NCBI GenBank assembly: GCA_030741225.1
Contig: JASLVU010000002.1
Coordinates: 1-34,292, forward strand
Origin: Candidatus Poseidoniaceae archaeon
GTDB lineage: Archaea; Thermoplasmatota; Poseidoniia; Poseidoniales; Poseidoniaceae
Reading direction: 5' to 3'
Length of the DNA: 34,292 bases
Shown here: piece after piece, positions 11,508-30,543 of the stretch
Position numbering within the stretch: position 1 is the first letter of the stretch
Layout of the letters: the number at the start of each line of letters is the position of its first letter
Position numbers and translations under genes: made by a program
Notes under the pieces: model-generated
Seen by the model: the letters and a program-made list of their open reading frames with translations, nothing else
Told to the model about the DNA's origin: nothing
Database searches by the model: none

Positions 11508-11567
11508 CACACCTCACATTCATATATGGATAGTTGTGGTTGTTTAATTATCACGGAGGCATCAAGT

Positions 11568-12578
11568 ATGGAATCTGGTATGACTGGAGCGCCCGCTATG
11601 GGTCAAAACCCCGCTGCGCAGGACCTAATTGGTACTGTTTCTGCAATTTCGAACAGCCTCATGAATGAAGTTGGGAAAGTCATTATCGGAAAACCACAAA
11701 ACCTTCGCCGTGTTACTGTCGGAATTCTATCAAACGGAAACATGCTGCTCGAAGATTTTCCAGGTTTAGCAAAAACATTACTGGCAAACACCTTCGCTCG
11801 TGCCCTTGGATGTAAATTCAAGCGTGTACAGTTTACTCCCGACCTGCTTCCTTCCGATATCATGGGCACCTACATGTACGACCAGAAGTCTGGTGAATTC
11901 AAACTACGTGCAGGTCCTCTATTCTCAAACATTTTACTTGCTGACGAAATCAACAGAGCACCTCCAAAGACTCAAGCAGCACTCCTTGAAGCAATGGAAG
12001 AAAAGCAAGTTACAATCGAAGGTATTACACACAAACTTCCTGCTCCTTTCGTTGTATTGGCAACCCAAAACCCAATTGAACAAGAAGGTACTTACCCGCT
12101 TCCAGAGGCTCAAATGGACCGTTTCTTGATGAAAATGAGTATGGGCTATCCAGACCGGCCACAAGAAAAAGCAATCCTTGCGCGTAGAAAACTACGTGGA
12201 AAAGACAATCACGATGTTGAACAGATTACAACTCCCAAGAAACTGGTAGCAATGCAAAAAGCACTTGAGACGGTGCATGTAGATCCTGCCATTCTATCGT
12301 ACATTGTTGAGATTGTACAAAGAACACGTGAAGATCATCGTGTCACGAACGGAGCTTCGCCTCGTGCTTCGCAGTCCCTGTTCAAGACCGGGCGAGCTGC
12401 TGCTGCAATCGCTGGTCGAAATTACGTAATTCCAGATGATATCAAAGACATCGCATTACAGATAATTTCTCACAGAATCAACATGAAACCTGAAGCTAAG
12501 ATACGAGGTATAACTGGGATGCACATTGTCCGAAAAATCCTCTCCGAAGTTCCTGTTCCTGTCATTCAACCTGCTTGA
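11568..12578 (+). CDS. MoxR-family AAA+ ATPase
   Basis: GNMLLEDFPGLAKT (Walker A region), LLADEINRAPPKTQAALLEAMEE (Walker B/sensor), VLATQNPIEQEGTYPLPEAQMDRF and GASPRAS. GGAGG lies 7 nt upstream of the ATG at 11568 (the ORF is open from 11526). Confidence 0.88.
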   Translation: MESGMTGAPAMGQNPAAQDLIGTVSAISNSLMNEVGKVIIGKPQNLRRVTVGILSNGNMLLEDFPGLAKTLLANTFARALGCKFKRVQFTPDLLPSDIMGTYMYDQKSGEFKLRAGPLFSNILLADEINRAPPKTQAALLEAMEEKQVTIEGITHKLPAPFVVLATQNPIEQEGTYPLPEAQMDRFLMKMSMGYPDRPQEKAILARRKLRGKDNHDVEQITTPKKLVAMQKALETVHVDPAILSYIVEIVQRTREDHRVTNGASPRASQSLFKTGRAAAAIAGRNYVIPDDIKDIALQIISHRINMKPEAKIRGITGMHIVRKILSEVPVPVIQPA

Positions 12579-12650
12579 AACTGTATACTCTAGGGTCTGC
12601 ATTGAAAGAGGAGGACCTTTTTCCCGTAATCGTCGGAGGTGGCAGTTAAG

Positions 12651-13610
12651 ATGAATCCTTACAAAATGGTCGTTGCTGTCGCCAATCAAAAAGGAGGTTG
12701 TGCAAAAACAACTACCGCCGTGAACTTGGCTGCAGCATTAGCAAAAGGCTCCTCGCGTCAAGGTTTGCCAAAAGCAAAAGTTCTGCTTATCGATTTAGAT
12801 CCTCAAGGAAATTGTGCTACGTCGTTCGGCGTTGAAAAAAAGAAAATCAAAAAGACAGCCTACGATTTACTTACCAATGATTCAGGCGAAGATTTGCCAC
12901 TTATGGAGGAATACCTGATTGGACCTGATGAATTAACGCAGTCAATGCGTGATGCCTGGAGTCTTCGAAACAACAACAAAAAACCACCAGAAAATCTCTC
13001 AGTGGGACACTTGTGGCTTTTACCAAGCGACATCCATCTCTCTGGCGCTGAAATCGAACTGAGTCATAAAATTGGTCGAGAAACTCGTCTGCGTGAAGCT
13101 CTTCAACCCATCATCGACCAGTTTGATTACATCATCATTGACACCCCACCATCGCTAGGATTGCTTTCAATCAATGCGATGTGTGCTGCAAACTGGGTTA
13201 TGGTACCTGTACAAGCAGAGTACTATGCGCTTGAAGGATTTAGCATGTTGATGAATTCCATAAAAATGATTCAACGAAGAATCAATCGTAATCTGAAAAT
13301 TTTCGGTATTGCAATGACTATGGTTGATGCTCGCTCGAAACTTAGTCGGCATGTATGCGATGAAGTGAACCGTAAAATGCCGAATAAATTATTCAAAACA
13401 ACAATTCGAAGACTGGTAAAAGTCGCTGAAGCCCCATGGAGTGGTGCTCCAACAGTGTTGTTGAATAAACCAACAAATTCCGGTGCTGGAGCAGGTTCTC
13501 TGGAGTATTGGACTCTTTCCAAAGAATTTCATCAACGAGTAATGGAGATGAGGCGAGAATTTGGAGTGAACGAAGACCCTCGGCTTCTCTTAGAACGTAA
13601 AAACCGGTGA
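12651..13610 (+). CDS. ParA/Soj-family partition ATPase
   Basis: Deviant Walker A VANQKGGCAKTT, then DLDPQGN, IIIDTPPSLG and VPVQAEYYALEG. A loop of about 45 aa (LIGPDELTQ...NLSVGH) is inserted relative to the compact Soj proteins I recall. The ATG at 12651 is preferred over the GTG at 12639. Confidence 0.85.
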   Translation: MNPYKMVVAVANQKGGCAKTTTAVNLAAALAKGSSRQGLPKAKVLLIDLDPQGNCATSFGVEKKKIKKTAYDLLTNDSGEDLPLMEEYLIGPDELTQSMRDAWSLRNNNKKPPENLSVGHLWLLPSDIHLSGAEIELSHKIGRETRLREALQPIIDQFDYIIIDTPPSLGLLSINAMCAANWVMVPVQAEYYALEGFSMLMNSIKMIQRRINRNLKIFGIAMTMVDARSKLSRHVCDEVNRKMPNKLFKTTIRRLVKVAEAPWSGAPTVLLNKPTNSGAGAGSLEYWTLSKEFHQRVMEMRREFGVNEDPRLLLERKNR

Positions 13611-13716: not shown

Positions 13717-13959
13717 ATGACAGGTGAAGGGATGACCTCGGTCAGTGTGAGTTACGAAGTACGACGTCAACTCAACACAATGCGAACAATGAGCGGACAC
13801 AAAAGTGTCAATGAACTACTGACGGATTTAGTTCGTGCACACAAGTTGAAGACCATGAACGGAGATATTGAAACGCTGCGAGAGCGGATGAAAGCAATTG
13901 CAGATGTCGATATAGAGCACTTGGTTGACCGACTTAACCTCGCACCATTCAAGGTTTGA
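13717..13959 (+). CDS. Ribbon-helix-helix (CopG/ParG/SegB-like) DNA-binding protein
   Basis: 80 aa. The N-terminal beta-strand plus two-helix pattern TSVSVSYEVRRQLNTMRTMSGHKSVNELLTDLVRAH is typical of RHH proteins. GGAGG lies 12 nt upstream. Confidence 0.6.
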   Translation: MTGEGMTSVSVSYEVRRQLNTMRTMSGHKSVNELLTDLVRAHKLKTMNGDIETLRERMKAIADVDIEHLVDRLNLAPFKV

Positions 13960-13964
13960 TTGTC

Positions 13965-14219
13965 ATGATGGAATGGCGTCCGAATGGATACGAATTTGAT
14001 GCCAAGAACTTGGTACGGGCTTTGTTTAGTGAAAATACTGATGAAGGTAAGTTGCTGGAAGCGGCTGCTTGTGGATACATTGAAATTTTTGCAAGAGCAA
14101 AAGCATGGAACAGCGTTCTTTGGTTGATAATGAACACGCTCAAGAAGGATGGAAAACCAGTTTACACTGGTGAAGAGTTGAAGGATTTAAGGGATTCACT
14201 GCCGATTGTTTGGCGTTGA
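13965..14219 (+). CDS. Hypothetical small protein (84 aa; 87 aa if TTG 13956 is used)
   Basis: The ATG lies 5 nt after the RHH stop with AAGGT 9 nt upstream. From TTG 13956 it would overlap the RHH gene by 4 nt. I recognise no motif. Confidence 0.5.
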   Translation: MMEWRPNGYEFDAKNLVRALFSENTDEGKLLEAAACGYIEIFARAKAWNSVLWLIMNTLKKDGKPVYTGEELKDLRDSLPIVWR

Positions 14220-14315: not shown

Positions 14316-16763
14316 TCATTGGTTCTTGTCAAGCCATTCTTGACCGTACCATTTCCATTGGTCCATCGTCCATCCTTCTGGGAGCCCGCTGGCCGGGACT
14401 GGCGGACCTTGCGATTCTTGGACTTGAGGCTCATCAACTACGGCCTCATTTGCCGGTTCTGCATCAGGGACATCTGCATCAGATGAGATTCCTGCGATTG
14501 CCTCAAGACTGTCGTCATCTGAATAAAGAGTAGACGAGTCGACCGAATTCAAACTGCTTTCAGAATCATCAAATTCATCGTCAGCAACGGTAAAATCAAG
14601 TTGAGCAACATCATCGTCCCATGCAGAATCTGAAACGATGCCGCCTTGGGCTGATAAGCCTGCAGTACCTGCAAGAGCTTCAGTTTCAGCTGATTTGTTT
14701 TCAGTTGGTACAAAAGGAACACCGTACATCTTCACCAACGAATTGGTCTTACGTCGTTTCATGATGAAACTGATTACTAAGATTACTGCGGTAAGTCCAA
14801 GGAAAGCGCCACCACCAACCACGACAACCTGCTTTACAATATTGGAATCGACAGAATCAGATTCAAGAAGCCCTGCATTTTTACTTGCATTCCAAGCACT
14901 GTAACTAAGATCGTATTCTCCTTCTTCTTTATCTCGAGTTAGGTAGGATTGGTAATCTTTACTCCTCCATCCTTGACAAGCCGAAGACTCATCATCAAAA
15001 TTGAGTAAACAATGGTCTTCTTCGGTTTGAACTAAAGGACGTGTGTCATCGTAATCGGAGTTCGATCCAACACCGTCTTTGTCTCCATCAAAATGTTCAT
15101 CCGGGTCAAGTTCCATACCTTGAGATTCAGTGACATCTACCCAACCGTCTCCATCCAAATCCTCACAACCGTACGAAGATACCTCGATGAAACCAGTCGC
15201 CGCTGATGCGTTAACTATCCACGCTTTGGTTGAATTTCCGGCTTTCCAATTGCAGTCATCAGCAAAATCTCCAGAGATATTATCTCCGTAGCCGTCTCCA
15301 TCTCCATCACGCCATTGAGAACCAATTGAAGGCAGTGCGTCTGCACCATCAGCAACCGTCCAATTTTCAGTAGGGTTCGACCACCCGTCTAAATCCGAAT
15401 CAAGGCAGCCAAATCGATCCTGATTTGAAAACCCATTAAAATTCGGACAGGCATCTGGAGTGATTCCGTTTGGATTGTCTCCATATCCATCTTGATCCGC
15501 ATCAGACCACTGCGAAGGTTCGTCTTTGAATGCATCTCCATCCAAACCGTTCGAATTATCACCGTAACCATCGTTATCCGAGTCCTGCCACTGCTCGCTG
15601 TTACTGGGGAACATGTCTCCATTCACTCCGCCTGTATTATCTCCATATCCGTCACCGTCATTATCGCTCCATTGCGTCGGCTCGTTCGGGAACGCGTCAG
15701 GAAGGTAGCCACCTGAATTATCTCCATATCCATCGCCATCAGTATCTGCCCATTGCGATGACTCGAGTGGGAAGGCATCGAGTTGGTCGGTATATCCATC
15801 ACCATCGGAGTCCAAATCATAAAGTCGAATCTTTGAAAATGAGGAATATGATGTTACGATATAGACTTCACCGGTAAAAGCTTGGAAAGAACCAACAACT
15901 CTGCCAGAAGAAGAATACGAATTCTGTTCAGTAAAGGAAGATACGTCTACGAGGCTCAACTCACCGTTCTGAGTGCCTGTATGATAGGTCATGTTATCGA
16001 ATTCTTCCAATGAAACGACTGAAGACCCGTGACTCAAAGTTAAAGTTTCATGAGCCCAAGTCGTGGTATTGTAACGAAACAGTTTTCCGTTCGATGTTCC
16101 CACAAGTAAGTCGCCATTATGATCTTCAAGAAGCGAATTCACTATCGAAGTAGACTCGGTTAATGTCGTAAGACTCGTTCCCCCTTGGTTTGAGAAAATG
16201 TACACCTTCTTATCGTATGCACCGATAGCAATGCGCCCATCAGAAAGGACTTCGAAGGCGTTGAATCCTGACTGTATATTGGCAGTAGTATATCCTGTTG
16301 CACCTTCAGAATTGTACTCTTCAGCCCTACGGCGTCCGGCAAAATAAGCCAGCCAAAGGTCGCCTTCATCATCCCAATCTGCGTCACTCACCGATTCAGG
16401 AGTGCTCATGTTCCAATTGACAATTTGAAGATCCATGTGAACAATAGATACACCTGAATCATGGCAAACTACAGTCAATTGTTGAGCGGCGTCAAGACGT
16501 GCTGCATTTGTGGTGAGATTCAATTCAAGAGACCATTGAGGTATGAGTGTCCCACCTGAAAAACTGTTCACGCTTAGATTCCCTGTCTCATCGACGGTAA
16601 GAATTGAACCATCAAACATTTCTTTCCAATACACGAAAGTGGTTTCCGATTGTTGAGTAAACCCTGCATCAACAAGTGAAGTGCTGTTCGCCGCCACATG
16701 GGGAGTGAAAGCACCCAACGGTAGAAGCAAAACTGTAATCACGAAGACGAGTAGTCTCTTCAT
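14316..16763 (-). CDS. Type-I membrane surface protein: signal peptide, beta-propeller-like region, tandem acidic Ca-binding repeats, TM helix, acidic cytoplasmic tail
   Basis: The signal peptide is MKRLLVFVITVLLLPLGAF. Residues 40-315 carry repeated DG.L/NG.L strand patterns (PQQ/BamB-like). Residues 316-573 carry D-x-D-x-DGYGDN repeats. The TM helix is VVVVGGGAFLGLTAVILVISFIM followed by KRRK. The tail of about 148 aa is D/E/S-rich and ends in GWTMDQWKWYGQEWLDKNQ. Confidence 0.8.
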   Translation of the reverse strand: MKRLLVFVITVLLLPLGAFTPHVAANSTSLVDAGFTQQSETTFVYWKEMFDGSILTVDETGNLSVNSFSGGTLIPQWSLELNLTTNAARLDAAQQLTVVCHDSGVSIVHMDLQIVNWNMSTPESVSDADWDDEGDLWLAYFAGRRRAEEYNSEGATGYTTANIQSGFNAFEVLSDGRIAIGAYDKKVYIFSNQGGTSLTTLTESTSIVNSLLEDHNGDLLVGTSNGKLFRYNTTTWAHETLTLSHGSSVVSLEEFDNMTYHTGTQNGELSLVDVSSFTEQNSYSSSGRVVGSFQAFTGEVYIVTSYSSFSKIRLYDLDSDGDGYTDQLDAFPLESSQWADTDGDGYGDNSGGYLPDAFPNEPTQWSDNDGDGYGDNTGGVNGDMFPSNSEQWQDSDNDGYGDNSNGLDGDAFKDEPSQWSDADQDGYGDNPNGITPDACPNFNGFSNQDRFGCLDSDLDGWSNPTENWTVADGADALPSIGSQWRDGDGDGYGDNISGDFADDCNWKAGNSTKAWIVNASAATGFIEVSSYGCEDLDGDGWVDVTESQGMELDPDEHFDGDKDGVGSNSDYDDTRPLVQTEEDHCLLNFDDESSACQGWRSKDYQSYLTRDKEEGEYDLSYSAWNASKNAGLLESDSVDSNIVKQVVVVGGGAFLGLTAVILVISFIMKRRKTNSLVKMYGVPFVPTENKSAETEALAGTAGLSAQGGIVSDSAWDDDVAQLDFTVADDEFDDSESSLNSVDSSTLYSDDDSLEAIAGISSDADVPDAEPANEAVVDEPQVQESQGPPVPASGLPEGWTMDQWKWYGQEWLDKNQ
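15252..15818 (-). repeat. In-frame tandem repeats (27-aa / 81-nt unit) encoding thrombospondin-type-3-like Ca-binding motifs
   Basis: The units are DTDGDGYGDNSGGYLPDAFPNEPTQWS, DNDGDGYGDNTGGVNGDMFPSNSEQWQ and DSDNDGYGDNSNGLDGDAFKDEPSQWS, plus degenerate flanking copies. The DNA shows the recurring TCTCCATATCC(A/G)TC. This repetition also accounts for the shadow ORFs on both strands here. Confidence 0.85.
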
Positions 16764-16820: not shown

Positions 16821-19322
16821 TTAATCATCCTGAGAGGTTTCTTCTTCTTCATCGTCGGATGACGAAGTGGATGTGAGTTTCAATGCAGGCATTTTCTGTA
16901 CTGGAGTCAGGGTTGAAGTCTTGTTCGCACTTGGGACTTGACCTGGCTTTGATTGTGGAGGAGGGCCTCGAGTTTTCTTTGGGACGAGTTGTGCTGGTTT
17001 GGGTGTTATAAGCGCCGTTTTCACCGGTTCGGGGATTTCCAATGTCTCAAGAACCGCTGTGATTGGAGTTAAGGTCGAAGTTCTCTGTTCTGAATCGGTT
17101 TCTTCTGGAACGATTTCCTCTGACACGGTTTCTTCGAGCATAGGTTCGGAAACTGGCTCTGCAACCGTAACAGGTTCTGGAACTTGTTCCATTTGAGTTT
17201 CGGCTTCAGGAGAAGAAGTCGGTTGAAGCGGTTTACGAACCAATTTCTGAACAGGTTGAGGCAGGTTCGATGCTATCGAGCCTCCAATTGGTGCTTTGAC
17301 CGGTTTAGCAAGTGAGGAACCAGGAAGAGGAGACAAAGGCTTGGAGCTTGTCATTGGAGTTCTCATTCCACCTAGACCCATTTGCGGTTGTGGAGCCTGC
17401 AATTGCCCGTCCATTATTCCACGCAATGGCCTTCCACCTGTCGCTCCTAATGCATCAGGACGCGCACCTAGAGACGTCGGATTGGTTTGACTGGACACTT
17501 GAGTGCCACCCTGGCCTGAAATTGATTGCATCCACATCTGCCGCTTCTCGGCTCGACTGTCAGTCGATTGGAGATCTCGGAATTCGGCTTCTCTCGTTCT
17601 CAAATCCGATTCAGCGGTGTTGATTTCGCCCTCAATTTGATTGGTGATTGCATCTCGCATCTTGTCCTCAGCCATTTCTTTGAATGCATCCATCTTTTCA
17701 CTTAGGCTCTGCAAACGTGTACGAATCTCAGCCCGCTTAAGTCCTAACTGAGCTTCAATCTCGGCACGGATATGTGTTTCTCTCTTACGAACATCAATGA
17801 GTGCCTTGTTTCGCATGATTTCTTCTCGCTTGTCCAATTGTCGCTCGAGTTGGGTAGCAACCTCTTCTTCTTTCCGAACTCGGAATTCGTTAAGTCGCTC
17901 CTCCATTTCAACCTCGAGTTCAAGAGATGTCTCTTCCTTAAGCATGTCGAGATCGGTCTCAAACGTGAGGCGCTCATTTCTCAAACCTGCATCTACCTCT
18001 GACATTATTGCCTTACGAGCAGACGCTTCTCTCGATTGGAATTCTAATTCAAGACGTTCAGACCAATCGGTCTTCTTGGAGTCGTACTGTTGTTCAAGTT
18101 GTTCACGCAGTTCTGCTTCTCTTTCGTAGCGGAAACGAGCAAGTCGATTTTGGATTTCAGCTTCACGAGCATTTCGGTAACTGGTGAACTCTTCATCCAT
18201 TCGAACTTGCAGTTCAGACTCAACATCGGACTTGAGAGAGCGGGAAATGTCATCAATGGCTTTGGAAAAGGTGATGTCATACTTCTCTCGAAGACGTGAT
18301 TTGCGTTCTGACAATTTCTCAGAATGTCGAGTCTGAAGTTGTTGTTCAATTTCGACACGCAATTCATCCCTACGTCGAGCAATAGCTAATTCAACATCCT
18401 CGCGCATTCTTTCCTCAAGTTCGTCGGTCTCTTTACGCAGTCGACCTTCAAGTTCCATCTGCAATTGTTCAGCAATATCTTCTTCCAGACGGAGGCTACG
18501 ACGCTCATATTCTGCCTTTAATCGGGCTTCACGTTGCTTTAGCCTTGAACGCAGTTGTTGTTCAAGTCGTGTACGAATTCCACGGCGAAGTTGTTCTTCT
18601 CGTTCAGCGAGGCGAGCCGCATGTCCTTCTTCAAGTCGAGAAATTTCATTCTCCTCCATTTCTTTGAATCGTTCTTCCATCTCGGATTCGAGATTCGCCT
18701 CAATCTCGCGTACACGACGCTGCAATTCTTGGTTGTATTCTATTGCCAGTCGTTCTTTCTGAATTTCCAAGCGTTGACGGTGTTCATCTTGAAGTTGAGT
18801 CTCGATTTGAGCTTTAAGTTGTGCTTTATGTTCTTCTAATCGACGGTCTTGTTCAACATCAAGTTTGTCTTGAAGAGCTTCGAGTTGTCGATTGAGTCTT
18901 AAATCAAGTTCACCGCGAATGCGGGATTCCTCACGTGCTAGAGAATCACGCTCCAATGTACTCAAATCACGTTCCATTCCTTCACGCATCTCTTTTTCAA
19001 GTGAATCAAGTGTAAGTTCATGTTGAATTGATAGGTCTTGCGCTAATGCTTCCTGCATAGCAACAACACGTTCAGTAATTGCTTGTTGGCGAAGTCGTCG
19101 TTCACGACGAATATCCGCTCGCAAACGCTCTTCTTGCCGGAAGCGAGCGCTGGTCATGACTGCTTGGTCAAGAGTCGAGGTTTCAGTCGAAGTAAACTGT
19201 GAACGGAGAGCTGATAACGAGACTTTTTGCGCGTTTTCCCGCTTCTTACGAGCCTCGTCGAGAGCATCGTCATTCTTGCTTGCGCTCATTCCCATCGTTC
19301 CCATCAAGTAGTTCATGCACAT
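16821..19322 (-). CDS. Very long E/R/Q/L-rich coiled-coil protein with a Pro/Thr/Ser-rich disordered C-terminal tail
   Basis: 833 aa with no signal peptide or TM helix. Residues 20-590 are almost uninterrupted charged heptad-like sequence. The I/L-E-x-Q-L motif recurs: IETQLQ, LEQQLR, AEQLQMELEGRL, IEQQLQ, LREQLEQQ, ATQLERQL, IEAQLG. Residues 590-833 are low complexity (PQPQMG, PLSPLPGS, TSTLTP twice, GPPPQSKPG) and end in SSSDDEEEETSQDD. The start could instead be one of the downstream Met codons (MGTMGMSAS). Confidence 0.8.
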   Translation of the reverse strand: MCMNYLMGTMGMSASKNDDALDEARKKRENAQKVSLSALRSQFTSTETSTLDQAVMTSARFRQEERLRADIRRERRLRQQAITERVVAMQEALAQDLSIQHELTLDSLEKEMREGMERDLSTLERDSLAREESRIRGELDLRLNRQLEALQDKLDVEQDRRLEEHKAQLKAQIETQLQDEHRQRLEIQKERLAIEYNQELQRRVREIEANLESEMEERFKEMEENEISRLEEGHAARLAEREEQLRRGIRTRLEQQLRSRLKQREARLKAEYERRSLRLEEDIAEQLQMELEGRLRKETDELEERMREDVELAIARRRDELRVEIEQQLQTRHSEKLSERKSRLREKYDITFSKAIDDISRSLKSDVESELQVRMDEEFTSYRNAREAEIQNRLARFRYEREAELREQLEQQYDSKKTDWSERLELEFQSREASARKAIMSEVDAGLRNERLTFETDLDMLKEETSLELEVEMEERLNEFRVRKEEEVATQLERQLDKREEIMRNKALIDVRKRETHIRAEIEAQLGLKRAEIRTRLQSLSEKMDAFKEMAEDKMRDAITNQIEGEINTAESDLRTREAEFRDLQSTDSRAEKRQMWMQSISGQGGTQVSSQTNPTSLGARPDALGATGGRPLRGIMDGQLQAPQPQMGLGGMRTPMTSSKPLSPLPGSSLAKPVKAPIGGSIASNLPQPVQKLVRKPLQPTSSPEAETQMEQVPEPVTVAEPVSEPMLEETVSEEIVPEETDSEQRTSTLTPITAVLETLEIPEPVKTALITPKPAQLVPKKTRGPPPQSKPGQVPSANKTSTLTPVQKMPALKLTSTSSSDDEEEETSQDD

Positions 19323-19408: not shown

Positions 19409-19801
19409 TCAAAAGGTAACTTTGAAACTCTTCGAACAGGCAGGGCAATCGATATTCCGTTCACCTGGGCGTCGCTTCATGCGTAGTTTTCGATCACAAC
19501 TTGGACATGTCACTTCAACCCGAGGCACATGAGGAGTGAGCGTGAAATGTATTGAGCATGATGCACATTGAAGGTGTGCTGGGCGTTTGTTCACTCCAGC
19601 AATTAGGACCTTACCACATTCTGGACAACCAATTTTTTCTTCGGCCCATTTTTTCCGCGTGACAGGATGGTCAACACGAACACGAGCATCACAAAGCGTG
19701 CAGTTAATTTCTCCCAACTCGTTCGGCAATAACCCACCACACTTTGGGCAGGAAAGTGCCGGAGGAGAGATGCGAGATTCAACAGTCAGTTCTTCGCTCA
19801 T
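19409..19801 (-). CDS. Small protein made of three tandem CxxC...CxxC zinc ribbons (MJ0042-type finger-like)
   Basis: The cysteine pairs are at 20/23+36/39, 61/64+81/84 and 101/104+121/124 (numbering from GTG 19807), so the period is about 40 aa. The last module, TCPSCDRKLRMKRRPGERNIDCPACSKSFKV, matches the MJ0042-type pattern. GAGGGG precedes the ATG at 19801. Confidence 0.7.
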   Translation of the reverse strand: MSEELTVESRISPPALSCPKCGGLLPNELGEINCTLCDARVRVDHPVTRKKWAEEKIGCPECGKVLIAGVNKRPAHLQCASCSIHFTLTPHVPRVEVTCPSCDRKLRMKRRPGERNIDCPACSKSFKVTF

Positions 19802-19853
19802 GTACACCCCTCACATTCGTTCTTCTTGATGTATTTGCTTCAACATTTAGAAA

Positions 19854-24132: not shown

Positions 24133-27100
24133 CTATTCCTCTTGAGTTAATTCAACCAAGTCTTTCGGTCGAGGAGGCGGATGACCACTTCTGGCAAGTG
24201 CTTTGTCAACTTGGTCAACAGTGAAGAGATTCATCCTTTCTCTACGCCTTAAGATAGCAGCAATTAGTATCCCACCAGAGAGAAGAACAACAAGTCCAGC
24301 AAAACCGAGAGCGGTTGTAGACTGACTGCTCTTCTGTTCAAATTCCTGAACATCTGCAACCGGTACGGGTACATTGCCTGTATGGTTCACAATTCGAACG
24401 GTAAGCCCCAATCGGCCGGTTTGCCAGGCTTCAATATCCCATACGAAGTCAACCCAAGAACCGCTTTCGATAAAACTAGAATTTTGAGTGATGACCCTGC
24501 CCATGTTGTCATAACATTCCACAGTCATATTACCACCGAGTAAGCCTACATTTGAGACACGAACAAAGATCTCAACTTCTTCACCAACAGATGGGCGGTA
24601 TGGAGTTACCAAAATATTTTCAAATTGAGGCTCAAAAGCAACCCATTGAAAGTTTGGAGAGAAGGGTTCATCCTCCGTCCCGATGCCATTGAGACTTCTA
24701 CCAGACAAGTCTTCTCCCGAGAACCAAACTGAAATTTGGTCGTTTTTTACCAACACTGAGTCGTCAAATGGCTTCATGTTGACGTACGATGAAAACGTAG
24801 ATGTTGAACTTGTACGAGAAAGAAAGTGAACCGGGGCGGAACCCATTGAACCATCAACCACGTTTCCTGCTCGAGTAAAATGCCAATGCATCTTCACAGT
24901 TGAATGCTTAACTCCCACTTCATCACGAAGAAGAAGAGCAACTTCGATTTCTTCTAAATCGTTTGAATCAAGTTGAGAAAGAATACCTGGTGGAAGTGAG
25001 AGACGAGGTGAATCGTAATCAAAGACAATAGCATAAGTTTTGAAATCGGTAAAATTCGCTAGGCCAACGACTTTCAATTGCAGTGATGCTTGCTGAAATT
25101 GAAGAATTGTTGAATTCAAGTGTAATGAAAAATCAATTTGTCCTAACGATGAAAAGGTTGTATTCAAATGACTTGAACGCTCACCGTCTGAGATAAGCGC
25201 TTGCAAATAGACACTTTCAGGCAGATGTTCCGCGACAATTGTGGTATTGCGATGATAAACGGTTGTATGAACTGAAAGAGTATCGTCCTCGTGCACCCAT
25301 ATGTTCGTATCATTTACAGTTCCAACCGGTAAAGTTTGGTCGGTGATGTTCACATTACCCAGTTCAAGTTCACTCTTGAGTGTCCAATCGAAGGCTGACA
25401 TTCGAGAAAAGCCTAAACCGAGGTCTTGGCCTTCATCAAAAATTTTGAGAGAAGGAGTTCCTTCCAAAGTCGAACCAAAAAGGTCCCAGGAAATTCGAAA
25501 TTGTATTTTTACATTCCATTGTGAGAACAGTGGCTTCTTCTCAATGATAATCAATGGCTTGTCTCCAAAGCATTGATTATCGTATGATAGCTGATTTAAC
25601 CGAGGTTTGTAGTTCAAAGCACATTGTTCAGATTCATCACGAGTGAGTAAGGACAGTTCAATCGCATCAAAGGAATCAATGCCATTGCCATCGGTTACGT
25701 CAAATGAAAAGGTATGTTGAAAACCCGGAAGAAGATGCGATTGGAACAAATCAAAAGAAAGCGTCTCTGTGTTGATACTGGCATCCATGCGTTCCTGGAC
25801 CTCAAATGTGGCTAAATCCAATTCCTCACCGAAATCGCCACCCCCAAGAAGTGTATTTCCTGCCATGTCAAAGCCTTTGATGACTATACTTGCCTTGCCT
25901 GAACTTGATTGAGGTGAGCGGATTTGCTGCCATGGAAGGAGTGGGAGGTCGATTTCTACGAGGTTAAGACCCACATTGAACGTCACTGTCTGAACTCTGT
26001 ATTCCTCCGCCTCCATAATGCCATTTTGATTGGAATCATCGTTTGATTCCAACCACGAATACAATTCAACAGAATCTGATAGGCCTTCTGGATCTTGAAG
26101 AGTTAATCGTAATGCGACATCTTGTTGTGCAGTCCAAATATGGCCGTCAGCTGCGACATATTGTCCCGAATCAAGGACCTCGACTTTCGCAGTATTTGGC
26201 TTGATTTTATCAAACAAATAGGGTACATTCTGTGAAGGGCTTGTACGATCCATGCTCGTTGTCGAGTCCTCAGAAAGTGGCCCTGAACGATGCAGATGGG
26301 GTGAAAGAACAATTCGTGTATTACTGGGCAAGTCGTCGTTCATGCTTGGAGTATGAAGAGCGATAGAGAAGAAACCATTCGAATCAAGATTTCCATACCA
26401 AGATGTACTCCAATTAACAGCAACTGAAGGCCATTCATTCGGACCACCAGATTCGTTTATCGGCGGTGATGCGGTCGCATCGATTCGTACTTCAGCATCT
26501 CCTTGATTTGCAAAGGCACCTACAATTCCTTCAAACCGTACTTGCCCAGTAGCCATTAAACTTTGATTGGCCTTAAGATGAAACGGCCACTGAGGGTTTG
26601 ACCAATCTGCTAAATTACGATTGGTCATATCTATGACATTGAAATCAATAATCTCAAGGTCATTTTCAATTTCGTTAAACGAGGTCTGTCGATAGAATAC
26701 TGCAGGTCCTGTAGAGAACCCTTCAACATCAGTGGCCTTTGCAAGAATGTAGACATCATCGACATCATCCATAAGCCACCGACTTGTAAATGACCAATTC
26801 ACCGAACAAGTATTTTTTGTGCAATGAACGGCCGACTGTGCCACATTTAGCGAGGCTAAACCAGCCCCAGATAGTTGTCGGAAACTTGGATTTGAATCGA
26901 GGTCGAATGCTTCCACCTCGACGAAACGACCGAGTTCGGTTGGGTTTGAGGAGAGCATGAATCTCACCGAAGAAATATCCGGGGCATCGAATTCCAAGCT
27001 GTGGGCATCCCCTCGCCAATGCTGTGTCTCAAATGAAACTGTTTGTTTTGGTAGCCATCTGTCATAATTTGGTTCAAGAATGTGGTCTACCATCTTGGTT

Positions 27101-30100
27101 TGCATAGAATATGTGAGATTAACCATAAGTGATCCTGTTTCTGTCATAATTGTCAACGGCAACTGCACAGTATCGGCCACCACTGAATCTGTTGCATTAT
27201 CAAGAATCGAATTGAGCAATTGGTGAGAAAGTGATGAAGACAGAAGTTGTTGATAGGGAACAAATTGCAATTCCGATAATTTTGCCGAGAAATTTCCGTT
27301 AAGTTGGATTTGAATGGTGCATATGTCCAAATGCTGTGTTAATTGTACTTGATTTGAACATGTTCCAGAGGCATGAATTCTATGAAATTGTGGGAATGTC
27401 GTGGCCTCGAAATTCGTCGTTTGCGAGGATGAAAGAGGACGGAATGATGCACCGTTTCCATCGGTTGTGGCTTCAATGAGGAAACTTACATCATAACCAG
27501 AGTTTCCCGAACCAATTGCTCTGTTTCGTGCCATTAAAATTGATAAATTTGCGATACTGTATCCTGTGCTATGAACAAACGTGAGGTTATGAAGACCGGA
27601 TTGGAAACTCGAATTTGCCAACTCAAAACCGTAGAAATGCTGATTGAAACCAAAGTCATTACTCGCACTTGATTGAGGCCAAGAAAACAGAGTTGTTGGA
27701 GATACACCAATCTTTACATCCGCCTCCTTAGGAGCGGTAGAACACATTGGTTCAAACATAAATCCCTGCAGTGACTGCCCAGGTGCCCAAGTCAGCGAAA
27801 AATCTGTCGACATTTGAGGACGTCCTTGGCGTTCAATGGTTTGTGCTAATGTGGGGTTGATGGACTGGTCCCAACGTGTAGCAATAACCGTGTATTGATT
27901 ATGTGATGCGGTGAGGTTGCCACCAATTAATTGAAATTCTGCTATATTGAATGGGCAGAATGGAATGGTTGGCCACGAGATGGAAGTATAACTACTCGAA
28001 GATTGGGATTGTAAAGCAAAATCACTGTTCACATTCAACAGATTGAGGTTTGTACTGGTAAAGGAGTGAGGATATTTTAGATGATACGCATTCAAGTAAG
28101 TAGAGGCTCCAATCGATAATTTCTCGATATTTGGGGTAATGAGTCGATCAAGACTTGACATACGGACTTTCACCTTAATCGAGGGATAACGGTCAACATC
28201 GAGAGGTAAATCAATGGGCAGAGTACGGTTTTGAAAACCTGGTATGGGTATGTCATTGTCATCAAGAATATCGAAACGTACAGTCGTATTCTCTGGCTCT
28301 TGGACAAACCCGTCAAGTTGACCCCATCCAAAAGAAGGGTCTGGAACAAGTAATTCAGAAATCCATGAACCTTCAGGTTCATAGACATCAATCTCAATAC
28401 CAGCATCATCGATGTACCAACCATCCAATTCGATAAGTTGGTCTGAGAAAAAGGTAAATTTAGCGCGAACTGACTGACCTGTAAGATTGGATAAATCGTA
28501 TTGTTTGAGGTCAAAGCCGCGTTGCACATTGTGACATCCACCCACAACACGCGAACCATCAAAAATTCCTTGATTGAACAAAGGGGAATTGACATTTGTT
28601 GTCGAAATTTGGTCATGGAAACTCCCCAGTGTTGGAGGAATAAACCACCAATTATCTCCCCCATCTGTCGATATTGAAACTGCACCTCCATCCCAATTCG
28701 CTTCAGTACAAACCCAGCTTCGGAAGGTTAAGCGCGATGTTGAATTATCCGGAATGAAATACTCTGGAGTGTAAAGCTCTGTCCACATATTGTTTCGATA
28801 TTCATCATTCAGGTAAATTCCAGCACCATTGACGCCTGAATGCCACACGCCCGGCCCGAAGCCTGAACTGTTACTGGTCGAGCCAATATCCCAACTCCGA
28901 CTCGATTGAGCCCACAGGGACCATCCAGCAGGAAGTTGATTTCCTGAATCAAAATTATACGATGTGGTTGAAGCAGTGTTATGACCAAAAGAAGTCAGCC
29001 ACTGCCATTCGTTCGCACCTGAGGTCGATACGAGCCATCCATCAACTGAACCGTTAATACCCGATGGTTGTTGGGTGAAATTTTTCACTCGCTTGTAGAC
29101 TTGAGATGCCGTACCACGATCAGTCCAAACAGCAATGTCATCAATGGCGATTCCTTCCCAACCAGAAGATGCCATTCCACCATAATTTACCTGAGCGTCT
29201 GTTTCAACAACTATTCGCAAAAAAATCGTGCTGGCGTTAAGAGGGGCTGTTGTTGTCCAAGGTAATGAATAATAAATTGGGCACCACTGATTTTGAGAAT
29301 CGGCGCCATTGAACCATTGCCCGTTGCATACAGCACCACGATTTGGATGGCCAGGATAAATCGAGATTGGAAAAAAGCTGTAACCATTATCAAGTGAAAT
29401 TTCTGTGACGAGATAATCGCTTGCACCCCCTTGAATATCCCAATTTACCCACAATTCAAGTTCAACATTCTGTCCGGTCATGTTTGAAAGATTAACCGGA
29501 AGTATCAGTTCTCCGAAAGCATTTGGCAGGTAATCGCCCGTCATGTTACCGTGAAACCATGCTCCATGAGGGTCTCCTTCATTGCGAATCTCAAAATTAT
29601 CGACAAACCAGCCTCCACGCAAACCTTGTGTTGAACTCGTATGGAAACACAATCGAAATTGCACGGTTGATTGGAATTGAGTAACGAGTGAGTCAAGTTG
29701 GAAATGAGCAGTACTCCAATTCGAAACTTCTCCATTCCAAACAGAAGGTGGAGTGTTGTTGAGCGATGCGGATGAAGGATATCCAGATGATGGAGAAAGT
29801 AAACCCCAACTCCCATTGGTATGACGGATGTCAATCCAAGCAGCATCATCAGCAAGTAAAGCGGTCCAATGTTCGAACGTTAGTGTGTAATTGTTGATGA
29901 GAAAAGGAGTATCTACGACTGGTGATTGAAGGCATCCTTCCATGTTTGGACCAATATCGCCAAATGCTTGAGTTGACAAAAATCCGACAGAGTTAGAACC
30001 GTTATCGGGCACAAGCATGCCTGAATTTGTGTTTACAGGAACAATACTTGGTCGCTGGATTGACCACACCTCATGGTCCAGCCCAGAACCCAACCACCTC

Positions 30101-30543
30101 GGTGCTGAAGTAACTGTCGATTCAAAATCAGTGATGGTTCCGAGTGAGGAATTGGTCGCCAATGTCAATCGACCTCCATGACCGATGCCATTGGAAGAGA
30201 TATGAGTCCCATTCCATTGGTTGGAAGTACCAATCCCAAAGTGCGTTCCGTTTGATGAAGAGGTATTCCATATTGGCTCTACCTCAATTGTGCCATCCAA
30301 GAAAGTCTTGTTCGTTGGCACTTGAATCAAAGTAGGTAGCGTTGAATTGATGCTGGTTTGATTCGGCCCAGGATGAAACATTTTCTCGCCCGTAATCTCG
30401 AGTTGAGGTTCGGGCAAGAGTGATTCCGAAAAGGAGGTATCGGAGGCAGTCGTTATTGTACTGCAGAGCATCAACATCACAAGGAAAATTGCCGTGAAGG
30501 AGGAGGAGGAAGAACGAGAAATCCGATGCTTTTCAACAGACAC
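24133..30543 (-). CDS. Giant (2136 aa) type-I membrane-anchored surface protein, probably N-glycosylated
   Basis: GTG start. The signal peptide is ...FTAIFLVMLMLCSTITTASD. The first 720 aa or so contain three beta-sandwich modules ending in MAM-domain-like motifs (GGWFVDNFEI, GWEGIAIDDIAVW, DGWYIDDAGIEI), each preceded by L.F..W....D....I..S.DGG..W-type strands. There are many N-x-S/T sequons. A CARDB-like module (EEVEIFVRVSNVGLLGGNMTVECYD...) precedes the C-terminal TM helix FAGLVVLLSGGILIAAIL followed by RRRER. Confidence 0.85.
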   Translation of the reverse strand: MSVEKHRISRSSSSSFTAIFLVMLMLCSTITTASDTSFSESLLPEPQLEITGEKMFHPGPNQTSINSTLPTLIQVPTNKTFLDGTIEVEPIWNTSSSNGTHFGIGTSNQWNGTHISSNGIGHGGRLTLATNSSLGTITDFESTVTSAPRWLGSGLDHEVWSIQRPSIVPVNTNSGMLVPDNGSNSVGFLSTQAFGDIGPNMEGCLQSPVVDTPFLINNYTLTFEHWTALLADDAAWIDIRHTNGSWGLLSPSSGYPSSASLNNTPPSVWNGEVSNWSTAHFQLDSLVTQFQSTVQFRLCFHTSSTQGLRGGWFVDNFEIRNEGDPHGAWFHGNMTGDYLPNAFGELILPVNLSNMTGQNVELELWVNWDIQGGASDYLVTEISLDNGYSFFPISIYPGHPNRGAVCNGQWFNGADSQNQWCPIYYSLPWTTTAPLNASTIFLRIVVETDAQVNYGGMASSGWEGIAIDDIAVWTDRGTASQVYKRVKNFTQQPSGINGSVDGWLVSTSGANEWQWLTSFGHNTASTTSYNFDSGNQLPAGWSLWAQSSRSWDIGSTSNSSGFGPGVWHSGVNGAGIYLNDEYRNNMWTELYTPEYFIPDNSTSRLTFRSWVCTEANWDGGAVSISTDGGDNWWFIPPTLGSFHDQISTTNVNSPLFNQGIFDGSRVVGGCHNVQRGFDLKQYDLSNLTGQSVRAKFTFFSDQLIELDGWYIDDAGIEIDVYEPEGSWISELLVPDPSFGWGQLDGFVQEPENTTVRFDILDDNDIPIPGFQNRTLPIDLPLDVDRYPSIKVKVRMSSLDRLITPNIEKLSIGASTYLNAYHLKYPHSFTSTNLNLLNVNSDFALQSQSSSSYTSISWPTIPFCPFNIAEFQLIGGNLTASHNQYTVIATRWDQSINPTLAQTIERQGRPQMSTDFSLTWAPGQSLQGFMFEPMCSTAPKEADVKIGVSPTTLFSWPQSSASNDFGFNQHFYGFELANSSFQSGLHNLTFVHSTGYSIANLSILMARNRAIGSGNSGYDVSFLIEATTDGNGASFRPLSSSQTTNFEATTFPQFHRIHASGTCSNQVQLTQHLDICTIQIQLNGNFSAKLSELQFVPYQQLLSSSLSHQLLNSILDNATDSVVADTVQLPLTIMTETGSLMVNLTYSMQTKMVDHILEPNYDRWLPKQTVSFETQHWRGDAHSLEFDAPDISSVRFMLSSNPTELGRFVEVEAFDLDSNPSFRQLSGAGLASLNVAQSAVHCTKNTCSVNWSFTSRWLMDDVDDVYILAKATDVEGFSTGPAVFYRQTSFNEIENDLEIIDFNVIDMTNRNLADWSNPQWPFHLKANQSLMATGQVRFEGIVGAFANQGDAEVRIDATASPPINESGGPNEWPSVAVNWSTSWYGNLDSNGFFSIALHTPSMNDDLPSNTRIVLSPHLHRSGPLSEDSTTSMDRTSPSQNVPYLFDKIKPNTAKVEVLDSGQYVAADGHIWTAQQDVALRLTLQDPEGLSDSVELYSWLESNDDSNQNGIMEAEEYRVQTVTFNVGLNLVEIDLPLLPWQQIRSPQSSSGKASIVIKGFDMAGNTLLGGGDFGEELDLATFEVQERMDASINTETLSFDLFQSHLLPGFQHTFSFDVTDGNGIDSFDAIELSLLTRDESEQCALNYKPRLNQLSYDNQCFGDKPLIIIEKKPLFSQWNVKIQFRISWDLFGSTLEGTPSLKIFDEGQDLGLGFSRMSAFDWTLKSELELGNVNITDQTLPVGTVNDTNIWVHEDDTLSVHTTVYHRNTTIVAEHLPESVYLQALISDGERSSHLNTTFSSLGQIDFSLHLNSTILQFQQASLQLKVVGLANFTDFKTYAIVFDYDSPRLSLPPGILSQLDSNDLEEIEVALLLRDEVGVKHSTVKMHWHFTRAGNVVDGSMGSAPVHFLSRTSSTSTFSSYVNMKPFDDSVLVKNDQISVWFSGEDLSGRSLNGIGTEDEPFSPNFQWVAFEPQFENILVTPYRPSVGEEVEIFVRVSNVGLLGGNMTVECYDNMGRVITQNSSFIESGSWVDFVWDIEAWQTGRLGLTVRIVNHTGNVPVPVADVQEFEQKSSQSTTALGFAGLVVLLSGGILIAAILRRRERMNLFTVDQVDKALARSGHPPPRPKDLVELTQEE

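Follow-up and report, generated by a model that had tools for sequence, protein, structure and literature searches.

A long predicted helical rod with a 19-residue hydrophobic periodicity, encoded beside a membrane protein in Poseidoniales archaea

We describe here a protein of 833 amino acids (aa), called the rod protein in what follows, that is encoded in a 34,292-nucleotide stretch of DNA (the window) from a Candidatus Poseidoniaceae archaeon (contig JASLVU010000002.1 of assembly GCA_030741225.1). Its open reading frame (ORF) lies on the minus strand at 16821-19322, exactly where an earlier note, made from the sequence alone, had placed it. The composition is dominated, as that note had also stated, by E, R, L and Q (128, 95, 89 and 61 residues, respectively); S and A are prominent as well, and there is a single Cys. 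Judging from homologues, which begin MS-x-SES and align to Met12, the true start is probably Met12 (codon 19287-19289) or Met10. The features of the protein are as follows, with the evidence that defines each; AF2 stands for AlphaFold2 monomer predictions, which were made for the target, with the family alignment, and for one 44%-identical member, and pLDDT for the predicted local distance difference test score.

16821..19322 including the stop codon, minus strand: ORF of the rod protein, 833 aa (ORF list)
19146..19322, minus strand: head, residues 1-59, disordered and variable in length (AF2 pLDDT, family lengths)
19188..19220, minus strand: conserved head motif SLSALRSQFTS, residues 35-45 (alignment)
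17967..19145, minus strand: coil 1, residues 60-452, continuous helix (Fourier analysis, phase, AF2)
18132..18815, minus strand: the three best-kept 76-aa (4x19) super-repeats, residues 170-245, 246-321 and 322-397 (hhalign)
17955..17966, minus strand: probable linker TFET, residues 453-456 (AF2 break in two members, 19/5 phase shift)
17520..17954, minus strand: coil 2, residues 457-601 (local period scan, AF2 helix)
17703..17873, minus strand: nearly invariant block in coil 2, residues 484-540 (invariant alignment columns)
16824..17519, minus strand: tail, residues 602-833, disordered (AF2 pLDDT <50, composition)
17061..17081, minus strand: tail motif copy 1, TSTLTPI, residues 748-754 (family motif enrichment)
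16998..17018, minus strand: degenerate tail motif copy, TALITPK, residues 769-775 (alignment)
16899..16919, minus strand: tail motif copy 2, TSTLTPV, residues 802-808 (family motif enrichment)

In the target, AF2 predicts a helix over residues 60-601 with pLDDT 80-92 and breaks at 305-316 and 453-456, and it gives pLDDT below 50 for residues 1-53 and 602-833. The very long stand-alone rod that the earlier note had proposed is borne out, but at ~542 aa it is shorter than the ~570 given there. Pro is absent from it. As that note had anticipated, the protein has no transmembrane segment (the highest Kyte-Doolittle 19-residue window scores 0.91, against a threshold of ~1.6), and no signal peptide was found. 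The head varies between 44 and 106 aa across the family, and within its conserved motif L36, L39, R40 and T44 are invariant in the family alignment. The tail (~232 aa, with 222-302 aa across the family) is 15% Pro, is rich in Thr, Ser and Gly, and has an acidic C-terminus ending SSDDEEEETSQDD. This agrees with the disordered Pro-rich tail of the earlier note, including its two copies of TSTLTP (at residues 748 and 802) and its acidic end. Family tails carry two to six copies each of [LIM]xP[VI], mostly in the form T-x-x-[LIM]-x-P-[VI], and are otherwise poorly conserved; in the degenerate copy, P774 is nearly invariant. The core motif occurs 99 times in family tails against 14.8 ± 3.7 in shuffles, and its T-prefixed form 55 times against 2.3, an enrichment of ~7-fold and ~24-fold, respectively.

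The defining property of the rod is the spacing of its hydrophobic residues. In a Fourier analysis of the large hydrophobics (LIVMFYW) between residues 56 and 600, a single sharp peak stands at a period of 3.80 residues, or 19/5, with a power of 5.1 against a shuffle maximum of 2.2; in normalised terms, the power at 3.80 is 33-35, against a 95th-percentile shuffle of ~8. In the same analysis of the target there is practically no power at 3.5, 3.6 or 3.67 (~0.07 at 3.5), which rules out a canonical heptad coiled-coil rod. The charged sequence that the earlier note had described as heptad-like is so only at residues ~560-600. Its motif counts were likewise too high: [IL]-E-x-Q-L, said to recur at least seven times, occurs only five times (the relaxed form [ILVM]E.[QE][LIM] gives ten), and RLEE, said to lead recurring segments, is indeed present, three times. 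When the sequence is written in rows of 19, the hydrophobics fall in columns 4, 8, 12, 16 and 19, with a spacing of 4-4-4-4-3. The local 19/5 phase stays flat (-100 ± 15 degrees) from residue ~70 to ~450, so that 20 consecutive nonadecads run on without stutter, stammer or skip.

This periodicity is a property of the whole family. All 24 aligned members peak at 3.79-3.81, with P(3.5) ≤0.4 in each, and the same peak is present in 86 of 86 family ORFs in the fetched loci, which amount to 1.07 Mb of Poseidoniales DNA (power 17.7-34.4). None of the 357 other ORFs of at least 300 aa in these loci exceeds a power of 10, and the other long frames of the window reach at most 7.2. Across the family, the register positions a, e, i, m and p are hydrophobic in 86, 61, 66, 42 and 57% of cases, and they are occupied by L, I, M, F, Y and W, with no Ala. 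Near residue 455 the 19/5 amplitude falls and the phase shifts; beyond this point the local period is ~3.75 and then ~3.70, before the heptad-like values of ~3.4-3.5 at residues 560-600. The second AF2 break lies here, at 453-456 in the target and at the equivalent of ~449-451 in the 44%-identical member, within a conserved NERLTxETDLD context. Because the break is reproducible and coincides with the drop in amplitude and the shift in phase, it is probably a real linker. We conclude with high confidence that the rod is a nonadecad helical rod.

Conservation follows the same geometry. In the 19/5 frame, column conservation tracks the helical angle (r = 0.88), and the conserved face is centred at +5 degrees, directly over the hydrophobic seam at +10 degrees. 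The conserved face extends to the charged positions that flank the seam (d, h, l and q), and variability is greatest at the back, in positions c, g, n and r. Read from the alignment, this one-sided face is the signature expected of a buried seam with flanking salt-bridge positions. In coil 2, the block at residues 484-540, which reads KEEEVATQLERQLDKREEIMRNKALIDVRKRE.IRAEIEAQLGLKRAEIR..., contains columns that are invariant across members 43-67% identical to the target.

Rod length is also highly conserved: among 24 members that share 43-67% identity with the target, 22 have a rod of 542 aa, and one member has a single additional residue in coil 2. The only change in the length of coil 1 among the 24, in the member P0015, is a deletion of exactly 19 residues (target ~340-358) that keeps the register; it comes from a 6.5-kb contig and is either real or an assembly artefact. 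Contigs of two sequencing runs, X24 and X25, whose library type is not stated and which are 90-95% identical to the window, skip 106 or 91 nucleotides (nt) at 17546-17653, towards the end of coil 2, with undefined letters at the joints; as rod length is otherwise invariant, this is probably divergent strain sequence rather than a deletion.

Ratios of nonsynonymous to synonymous substitution rates (dN/dS), estimated from the window against the loci L010 (97% identical) and L005 (90% identical), show where selection acts.

Rod: 0.022 (L010) and 0.011 (L005)
Head: 0.068 (L010) and 0.059 (L005)
Tail: 0.147 (L010) and 0.111 (L005)
MoxR: 0.006-0.013
ParA-like ATPase: 0.013-0.016
P-type ATPase: 0.063-0.093
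Membrane-protein gene downstream of the rod gene: 0.038-0.083

Constraint on the rod matches that on MoxR and ParA, the ATPases encoded nearby. For a coiled coil to evolve as slowly as adjacent ATPases is unusual, and therefore points to constraints beyond the upkeep of a helix.

The rod also contains longer repeats, as the earlier note had surmised in proposing an ancient internal tandem repeat. Alignment slices of 76 residues, or 4x19, align in register over nearly their full length (hhalign probability 87-91%, E 1e-6 to 4e-6), most clearly for the three units listed above; weaker copies lie at residues 113-169 (a 57-aa unit, offset by 19 residues) and 398-473. Self-similarity at lags of 38, 57 and 76 exceeds a column-shuffle control that keeps the 19-column composition (z = 3.2-4.0). 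Tandem Repeats Finder detects no DNA-level tandem repeat within the rod, which excludes a recent DNA tandem repeat as the source of the periodicity and indicates that the duplications are ancient.

A period of 3.80 has consequences for the predicted geometry. The degree of supercoiling of a coiled coil scales with the period minus 3.63, with right-handed supercoils above this value, and on this scale heptads stand at -0.13 and pentadecads at +0.12 (PMC9858780); nonadecads come to +0.17, as 3.80 minus 3.63. The 19/5 repeat has been named among the accessible coiled-coil periodicities (PMC8016460). Hartmann et al. give a local value of 3.8, in YadA, as the most extreme periodicity in known structures, and an upper limit is expected near 3.9 (PMC4786415). 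For the rod protein, the computed drift of the seam is 4.4-4.7 degrees per residue, equivalent to one supercoil turn per 76-81 residues (11-12 nm) and to ~1.3 times the supercoiling of a heptad coiled coil. The 76-residue super-repeat corresponds to one predicted supercoil turn, given 3.62 residues per helix turn. If extended, coil 1 would measure ~58 nm and the whole rod ~80 nm by calculation. We lean, by a modest step past even, towards a right-handed homo-oligomer as the form that the rod adopts. It would probably have three or more strands, because its core residues are large (L, I, M, F, Y, W) and do not include Ala; non-heptad repeats with large side chains in the core favour higher oligomers (PMC9858780).

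Several known coiled-coil systems share some of these properties. The stalk of YadA likewise reaches a periodicity of 19/5, the most extreme in coiled-coil structures (PMC4786415), which gives way to a lower periodicity along its length (PMC8016460), comparable with the change from coil 1 to coil 2. However, its 3.8 stretch is local, whereas that of the rod protein extends over ~380 unbroken residues. Unlike the cytoplasmic archaeal rod protein, YadA is a secreted trimer of the bacterial outer membrane that carries a head and a beta-barrel anchor; signal peptide, head domains and beta-barrel anchor of the YadA type were not found in the rod protein, and no homology is detectable. Tetrabrachion is archaeal and long, and forms a right-handed parallel tetramer with large hydrophobic residues in its core. 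Its stalk in Staphylothermus marinus (the right-handed coiled coil, RHCC) resembles the rod in being right-handed and built on a non-heptad repeat (PMC8016460), but that repeat is 11/3 (3.67), only slightly right-handed, and the protein belongs to the S-layer, outside the cell. Neither a profile search of the Protein Data Bank (PDB) nor Foldseek matched the rod protein to tetrabrachion in sequence or fold. The peripheral stalk of A/V-type ATPases (E/G or E/H) is an archaeal right-handed coiled coil of hendecad and related repeats. It consists of heterodimers of ~100-200 aa with a globular head, unlike the rod, which is several times longer and stands alone. FilP, Scy and crescentin are long cytoplasmic rods of non-heptad repeats with a head-rod-tail layout, and Scy, with >1000 residues, is made almost wholly of hendecads (PMC9858780). 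FilP and Scy differ from the rod protein in their hendecads (3.67), Ala-rich cores, dimeric state, DivIVA-like N-terminal domain and bacterial origin. The rod protein is akin in kind to the YadA stalk, tetrabrachion and Scy/FilP, but lacks the features that mark membership of each.

Family searches gave a consistent picture, and the absence of a characterised family noted earlier is upheld throughout. The rod protein has no match in Pfam at E ≤ 0.1 (and none for its sub-regions at E ≤ 10), in NCBIfam, in a PDB profile search (E ≤ 1), in Foldseek against PDB, in PADLOC or in PHROGs. With all of these negative, origins from SMC/Rad50, ESCRT-III/PspA, V-ATPase stalks, DivIVA/FilP, and defence or phage systems were rejected. 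There is no ATPase head, as the earlier note had argued in setting SMC and Rad50 aside: Pfam and NCBIfam return no domain at all, Walker-type ATPase half-domains are absent, the ends are disordered and there is one Cys. The profile and Foldseek searches that the same note had proposed as a check produced no match to SMC, V-ATPase stalk or PspA/ESCRT-III proteins. For the Snf7 and PspA_IM30 profiles this holds in Pfam (E ≤ 0.1), PDB (E ≤ 1) and Foldseek, and the rod is 542 aa long, against a core of ~200-260 aa in those proteins. For vATP-synt_E-type profiles there is no Pfam or PDB match, and the C-terminal region of the rod protein is disordered. DivIVA gives no Pfam match, either for the whole protein or for its N-terminal 77 aa at E ≤ 10.

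Relatives were found only within the family itself. A word-indexed search returned 53 clusters, which are nameless or "hypothetical", with the few labels being Euryarchaeota or Candidatus Poseidonia. An exhaustive hidden Markov model (HMM) search of 1.84 billion representatives yielded 180 proteins, all of this family and mostly fragments, and no remote relatives. A relative is encoded in 307 GTDB species-representative genomes. The 80 matches listed are Poseidoniales, Poseidoniaceae, Poseidonia or generic Euryarchaeota/Thermoplasmatota metagenome-assembled genomes (MAGs), with the closed Marine Group II genome CM001443 among them. Two MAGs with bacterial labels carry the rod protein at 61-63% identity (L069, CALDQY010000225.1, Rhodobiaceae; L079, NZEQ01000094.1, Verrucomicrobiales), and are most likely mis-binned archaeal contigs. 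Apart from these two, and judging by the labels, the rod protein is specific to Poseidoniales (Marine Group II archaea). Its gene is single-copy in the loci seen. The 97% identity between the window and L010 places the window in a Poseidoniaceae (MGIIa) genome.

The earlier note had named a gene restricted to one genome and not expressed as an outcome that would count against it. The first part of this falls away, with 307 species genomes and strong purifying selection. On expression the record is mixed: several 151-nt contigs match the rod gene at 96-99% identity in one oligo-dT marine RNA library, but polyA metatranscriptomes of samples that hold the DNA contain none of its sampled words. 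Because of its selection (dN/dS) and distribution, the rod gene is functional.

The gene order around the rod gene is P-type ATPase, ArsR, triple zinc-ribbon protein, rod protein and a membrane protein of ~800-846 aa. The features that matter for the argument, all on the minus strand, are the following.

14316..16763, minus strand: downstream membrane-protein partner, 815 aa (weak beta-propeller Pfam matches, transmembrane helix)
14331..14405, minus strand: C-terminal Trp motif of the partner, PP[LVI]P-x-x-GLP[ED]GWT-x-[DE]QWKWYG-x-[EQ][WY]L (six-frame scan, alignment)
19409..19807, minus strand: upstream triple zinc-ribbon protein, 132 aa, six CxxC (Pfam Zn_ribbon_6)

The partner has a signal peptide, a weakly matching beta-propeller and nine Asp-rich DxDxDG repeats, followed by a transmembrane helix at residues 646-668 (nt 14760-14828) and an acidic cytoplasmic tail of 147 aa. 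This tail is variable except at its end, where the C-terminal 25-30 residues are PPVPASGLPEGWTMDQWKWYGQEWL. The Trp motif at this end is kept in a three-way alignment of partners that are 30-44% identical, and all 68 of its 68 six-frame matches in the ~1.07 Mb of Poseidoniales DNA fall within a partner ORF. It has no Pfam match; a homologue search with the C-terminal 47 aa of the partner gave four candidates. Contigs of several public runs skip 54-555 nt or step back 39-48 nt within the repeats of the partner gene (15156-15898), which suggests variation in repeat number between strains, or collapse by the assembler.

In 76 of 84 loci the rod gene is followed by a long ORF on the same strand; of the remaining eight loci, most are cut off by the end of the contig. 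The two genes are separated by -23 to +80 nt, with 17 overlaps, and by 57 nt in the window, where no terminator is predicted between them and a GAGGT element stands 13 nt before the ATG of the partner. The rod and partner genes are very likely co-transcribed.

The zinc-ribbon gene lies 86 nt upstream of the rod gene and is the first gene of the cassette in most lineages. It is also found upstream in L001, L085 and L086, and in L085 it overlaps the rod start by 29 nt. Several PHROGs of unknown function are matched by the last ribbon of its product (E 5e-7). A CDP-alcohol phosphatidyltransferase gene lies between the zinc-ribbon and rod genes in some lineages (L001 6996-7892, L003 7036-7896); it is absent from the window, and the cassette is not strictly contiguous everywhere. 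The gene order holds from the window to members that are 43-44% identical, and the cassette is kept in the most divergent members.

On the opposite strand, two small ORFs and genes for a ParA-like ATPase, MoxR and IF-2 converge on the cassette. The ParA/MinD-like ATPase (AAA_31/CbiA, 12639-13610, plus strand) is followed on the same strand by ORFs of 80 aa (13717-13959) and 87 aa (13956-14219), which overlap by 4 nt; this trio converges on the rod operon and recurs in all the divergent loci examined. It is very strongly constrained, as shown by the low dN/dS of ParA given above and by an 80-aa protein that does not differ (100% identity) in L010. By eye the N-terminus of the 80-aa protein looks like a ribbon-helix-helix (RHH) DNA binder, for which there is no Pfam match, and the trio resembles, by analogy, a ParA plus RHH partition module (type Ib or SegAB-like). 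The MoxR-type AAA+ ATPase (AAA_3, E 3e-65; 11526-12578, plus strand) has no adjacent gene with a vWA domain in the window. It weakly matches the bpMoxR model, which describes MoxR-vWA-beta-propeller ternary systems, and the rod partner has a beta-propeller, perhaps by coincidence. Further away, an ORF of 2136 aa (24133-30543, minus strand), with a homologue at the same position in L003 and L004, has an InhA-like MAM domain (E 2.5e-10) as its only Pfam match and presumably encodes a large surface or secreted protein.

How might these elements work together? The earlier note had offered "filament or scaffold" as candidate roles; because the rod gene shares a conserved operon with that of a membrane protein, a membrane-docked scaffold is the more likely of the two, ahead of a free filament. 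We tentatively propose, at somewhat below even confidence, a fixed-length and strongly right-handed coiled-coil scaffold that is docked under the membrane, a function that we infer from the layout and the neighbourhood. The rod protein would be a cytoplasmic head-rod-tail protein whose rod homo-oligomerises as a right-handed coiled coil, ~80 nm long when extended. The motifs of its disordered tail and its conserved head motif may serve as docking sites, and their target could be the operon partner, a type-I surface membrane protein, at its invariant Trp-rich end in the cytoplasm. The triple zinc-ribbon protein may be a third component. The rod would then act as a sub-membrane scaffold or spacer of fixed length that couples the surface protein to the cell interior. 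Docking is suggested by the combination of an invariant cytoplasmic peptide on the partner with multivalent linear motifs on the rod protein; taken separately, membrane docking through this partner is a possible but doubtful step. A bolder version, in which this is the first natural nearly all-nonadecad protein, a strongly right-handed ruler or tether near the predicted upper limit of coiled-coil periodicity, of length kept across the order and docked through its tail motifs to the cytoplasmic Trp motif of a receptor-like surface protein, is unlikely to hold as a whole.

Several observations weigh against the membrane-docked scaffold. Synteny reaches far beyond the cassette (to IF-2, NDK and ribosomal proteins), so adjacency alone is weak evidence of physical interaction, and the tail of the rod protein and the cytoplasmic tail of its partner are both acidic. 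The evidence of expression is thin, comprising a few 151-nt contigs in one library. The AF2 models are of monomers, with an unreliable global arrangement (predicted template modelling score, pTM, 0.23-0.24), and in both members these monomers fold back at ~300-316, possibly as a real hairpin. Among charge offsets in the rod, only the intrahelical i to i+4 is enriched and no interhelical type is, leaving parallel in-register pairing without direct support from the sequence. Finally, there is no significant charge periodicity, the best peak, at ~9.6 residues, lying under the 95th percentile of shuffles.

The alternative that survives best takes the fold-back at face value. The rod would turn back on itself at ~300-316 and at ~453 to form an antiparallel two- or three-helix rod of 35-40 nm, with head and tail at the same end, similar to an SMC or Rad50 arm without ATPase heads, and it might dimerise at the apex. 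The AF2 monomers of two 44%-identical members both break near target residues 296-316 and 449-456; the segment near residue 310 (MREDVELAIARRRDEL) ranks with the best conserved and contains one extra hydrophobic residue as well as small residues; and the repeat alignment of 246-321 with 322-397 ends at ~residue 301. On the other hand, the first break, which falls at the equivalent of ~296-299 in the 44%-identical member, shifts by ~10 residues between the models, has a pLDDT of ~56 and contains neither Gly nor Pro. The 19/5 register, phase and amplitude continue unchanged across it, which a loop would preserve only by chance. Besides the low pTM, AF2 has been reported to bend long coiled coils spuriously (PMC11676326). 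As a feature of the models, the first break is probably an artefact, and could otherwise be a soft hinge or hairpin; we regard the folded-back rod as unlikely.

A self-assembling cytoskeletal filament, similar in function to intermediate filaments and independent of the membrane neighbour, is a somewhat more distant prospect. The rod protein would polymerise laterally or end to end as a scaffold for cell shape or division, comparable with crescentin, FilP and Scy. Its head-rod-tail layout with a linker dividing the rod fits such a role, as do the hendecad (non-heptad) repeats that FilP and Scy also use (PMC9858780). The very low dN/dS of the rod, which reaches the flanking positions, would fit lateral packing contacts, and the gene is single-copy and widespread across the order. 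However, the charge periodicity behind staggered assembly in myosin and intermediate-filament rods is missing, the back face of the helix is variable, and neither a DivIVA-like nor an intermediate-filament motif is matched in Pfam.

A monomeric single alpha-helix (SAH) of the ER/K type, serving as a stiff ruler between docking sites in the head and the tail, is quite improbable. The invariant length of the rod would suit a ruler, and its composition resembles that of ER/K SAHs and of trichohyalin-type E/R/Q/L rods, as do its opposite charges at i to i+4, which number 80 in the rod against 56 ± 6 in shuffles; this enrichment survives a register control (z ~3 in seven divergent members). Yet the rod, unlike those helices, has a strictly periodic conserved hydrophobic seam. 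Large hydrophobics make up 25% of its residues and are set in this one seam, with position a hydrophobic in 86% of cases. An SAH has no privileged face and no need of a strict 3.80 register over 380 residues, and the one-sided conservation therefore argues against it in spite of the charge enrichment.

The weakest of the alternatives, a lattice binder in the manner of tropomyosin or nebulin whose quasi-repeats of 38 and 76 residues (5.6 and 11 nm) would offer equivalent faces, at each half or full supercoil turn, to a periodic partner (a cytoskeletal polymer or an array of membrane-protein tails), draws on the similarity at lags 38, 57 and 76 beyond register composition, on the in-register 76-aa units and on their match to one predicted supercoil turn, but is very improbable given a super-repeat that is not strictly periodic (with weak outer copies and one unit of 57 aa), a variable back face and a cassette with no candidate polymer gene. 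The likeness to myosin rods and tropomyosin is that the super-repeat is an integer multiple of the core unit, 4x19 in the rod protein and 4x7 in myosin; these proteins are, by contrast, heptad and left-handed, and myosin is charge-driven, whereas the rod is without charge periodicity.

What is new here is a 19/5 periodicity sustained over ~380 residues, a periodicity described before only locally, in the structure of YadA (PMC4786415). A conserved natural protein that holds 19/5 for 20 repeats would test how much right-handed supercoiling alpha-helices tolerate, and for protein designers it would provide a new rod geometry with a short pitch of ~11-12 nm. For annotation, a diagnostic signature can unite several hundred "hypothetical protein" entries in one family. 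Poseidoniales have not been cultured, are some of the most abundant archaea of the surface ocean, and to our knowledge nothing is known of their internal architecture; the rod gene offers a concrete entry point to it that can be expressed recombinantly. If membrane docking were true, the link from a surface protein to an internal scaffold would resemble the coupling of receptors to the cytoskeleton in eukaryotes, in the most abundant planktonic Euryarchaeota.

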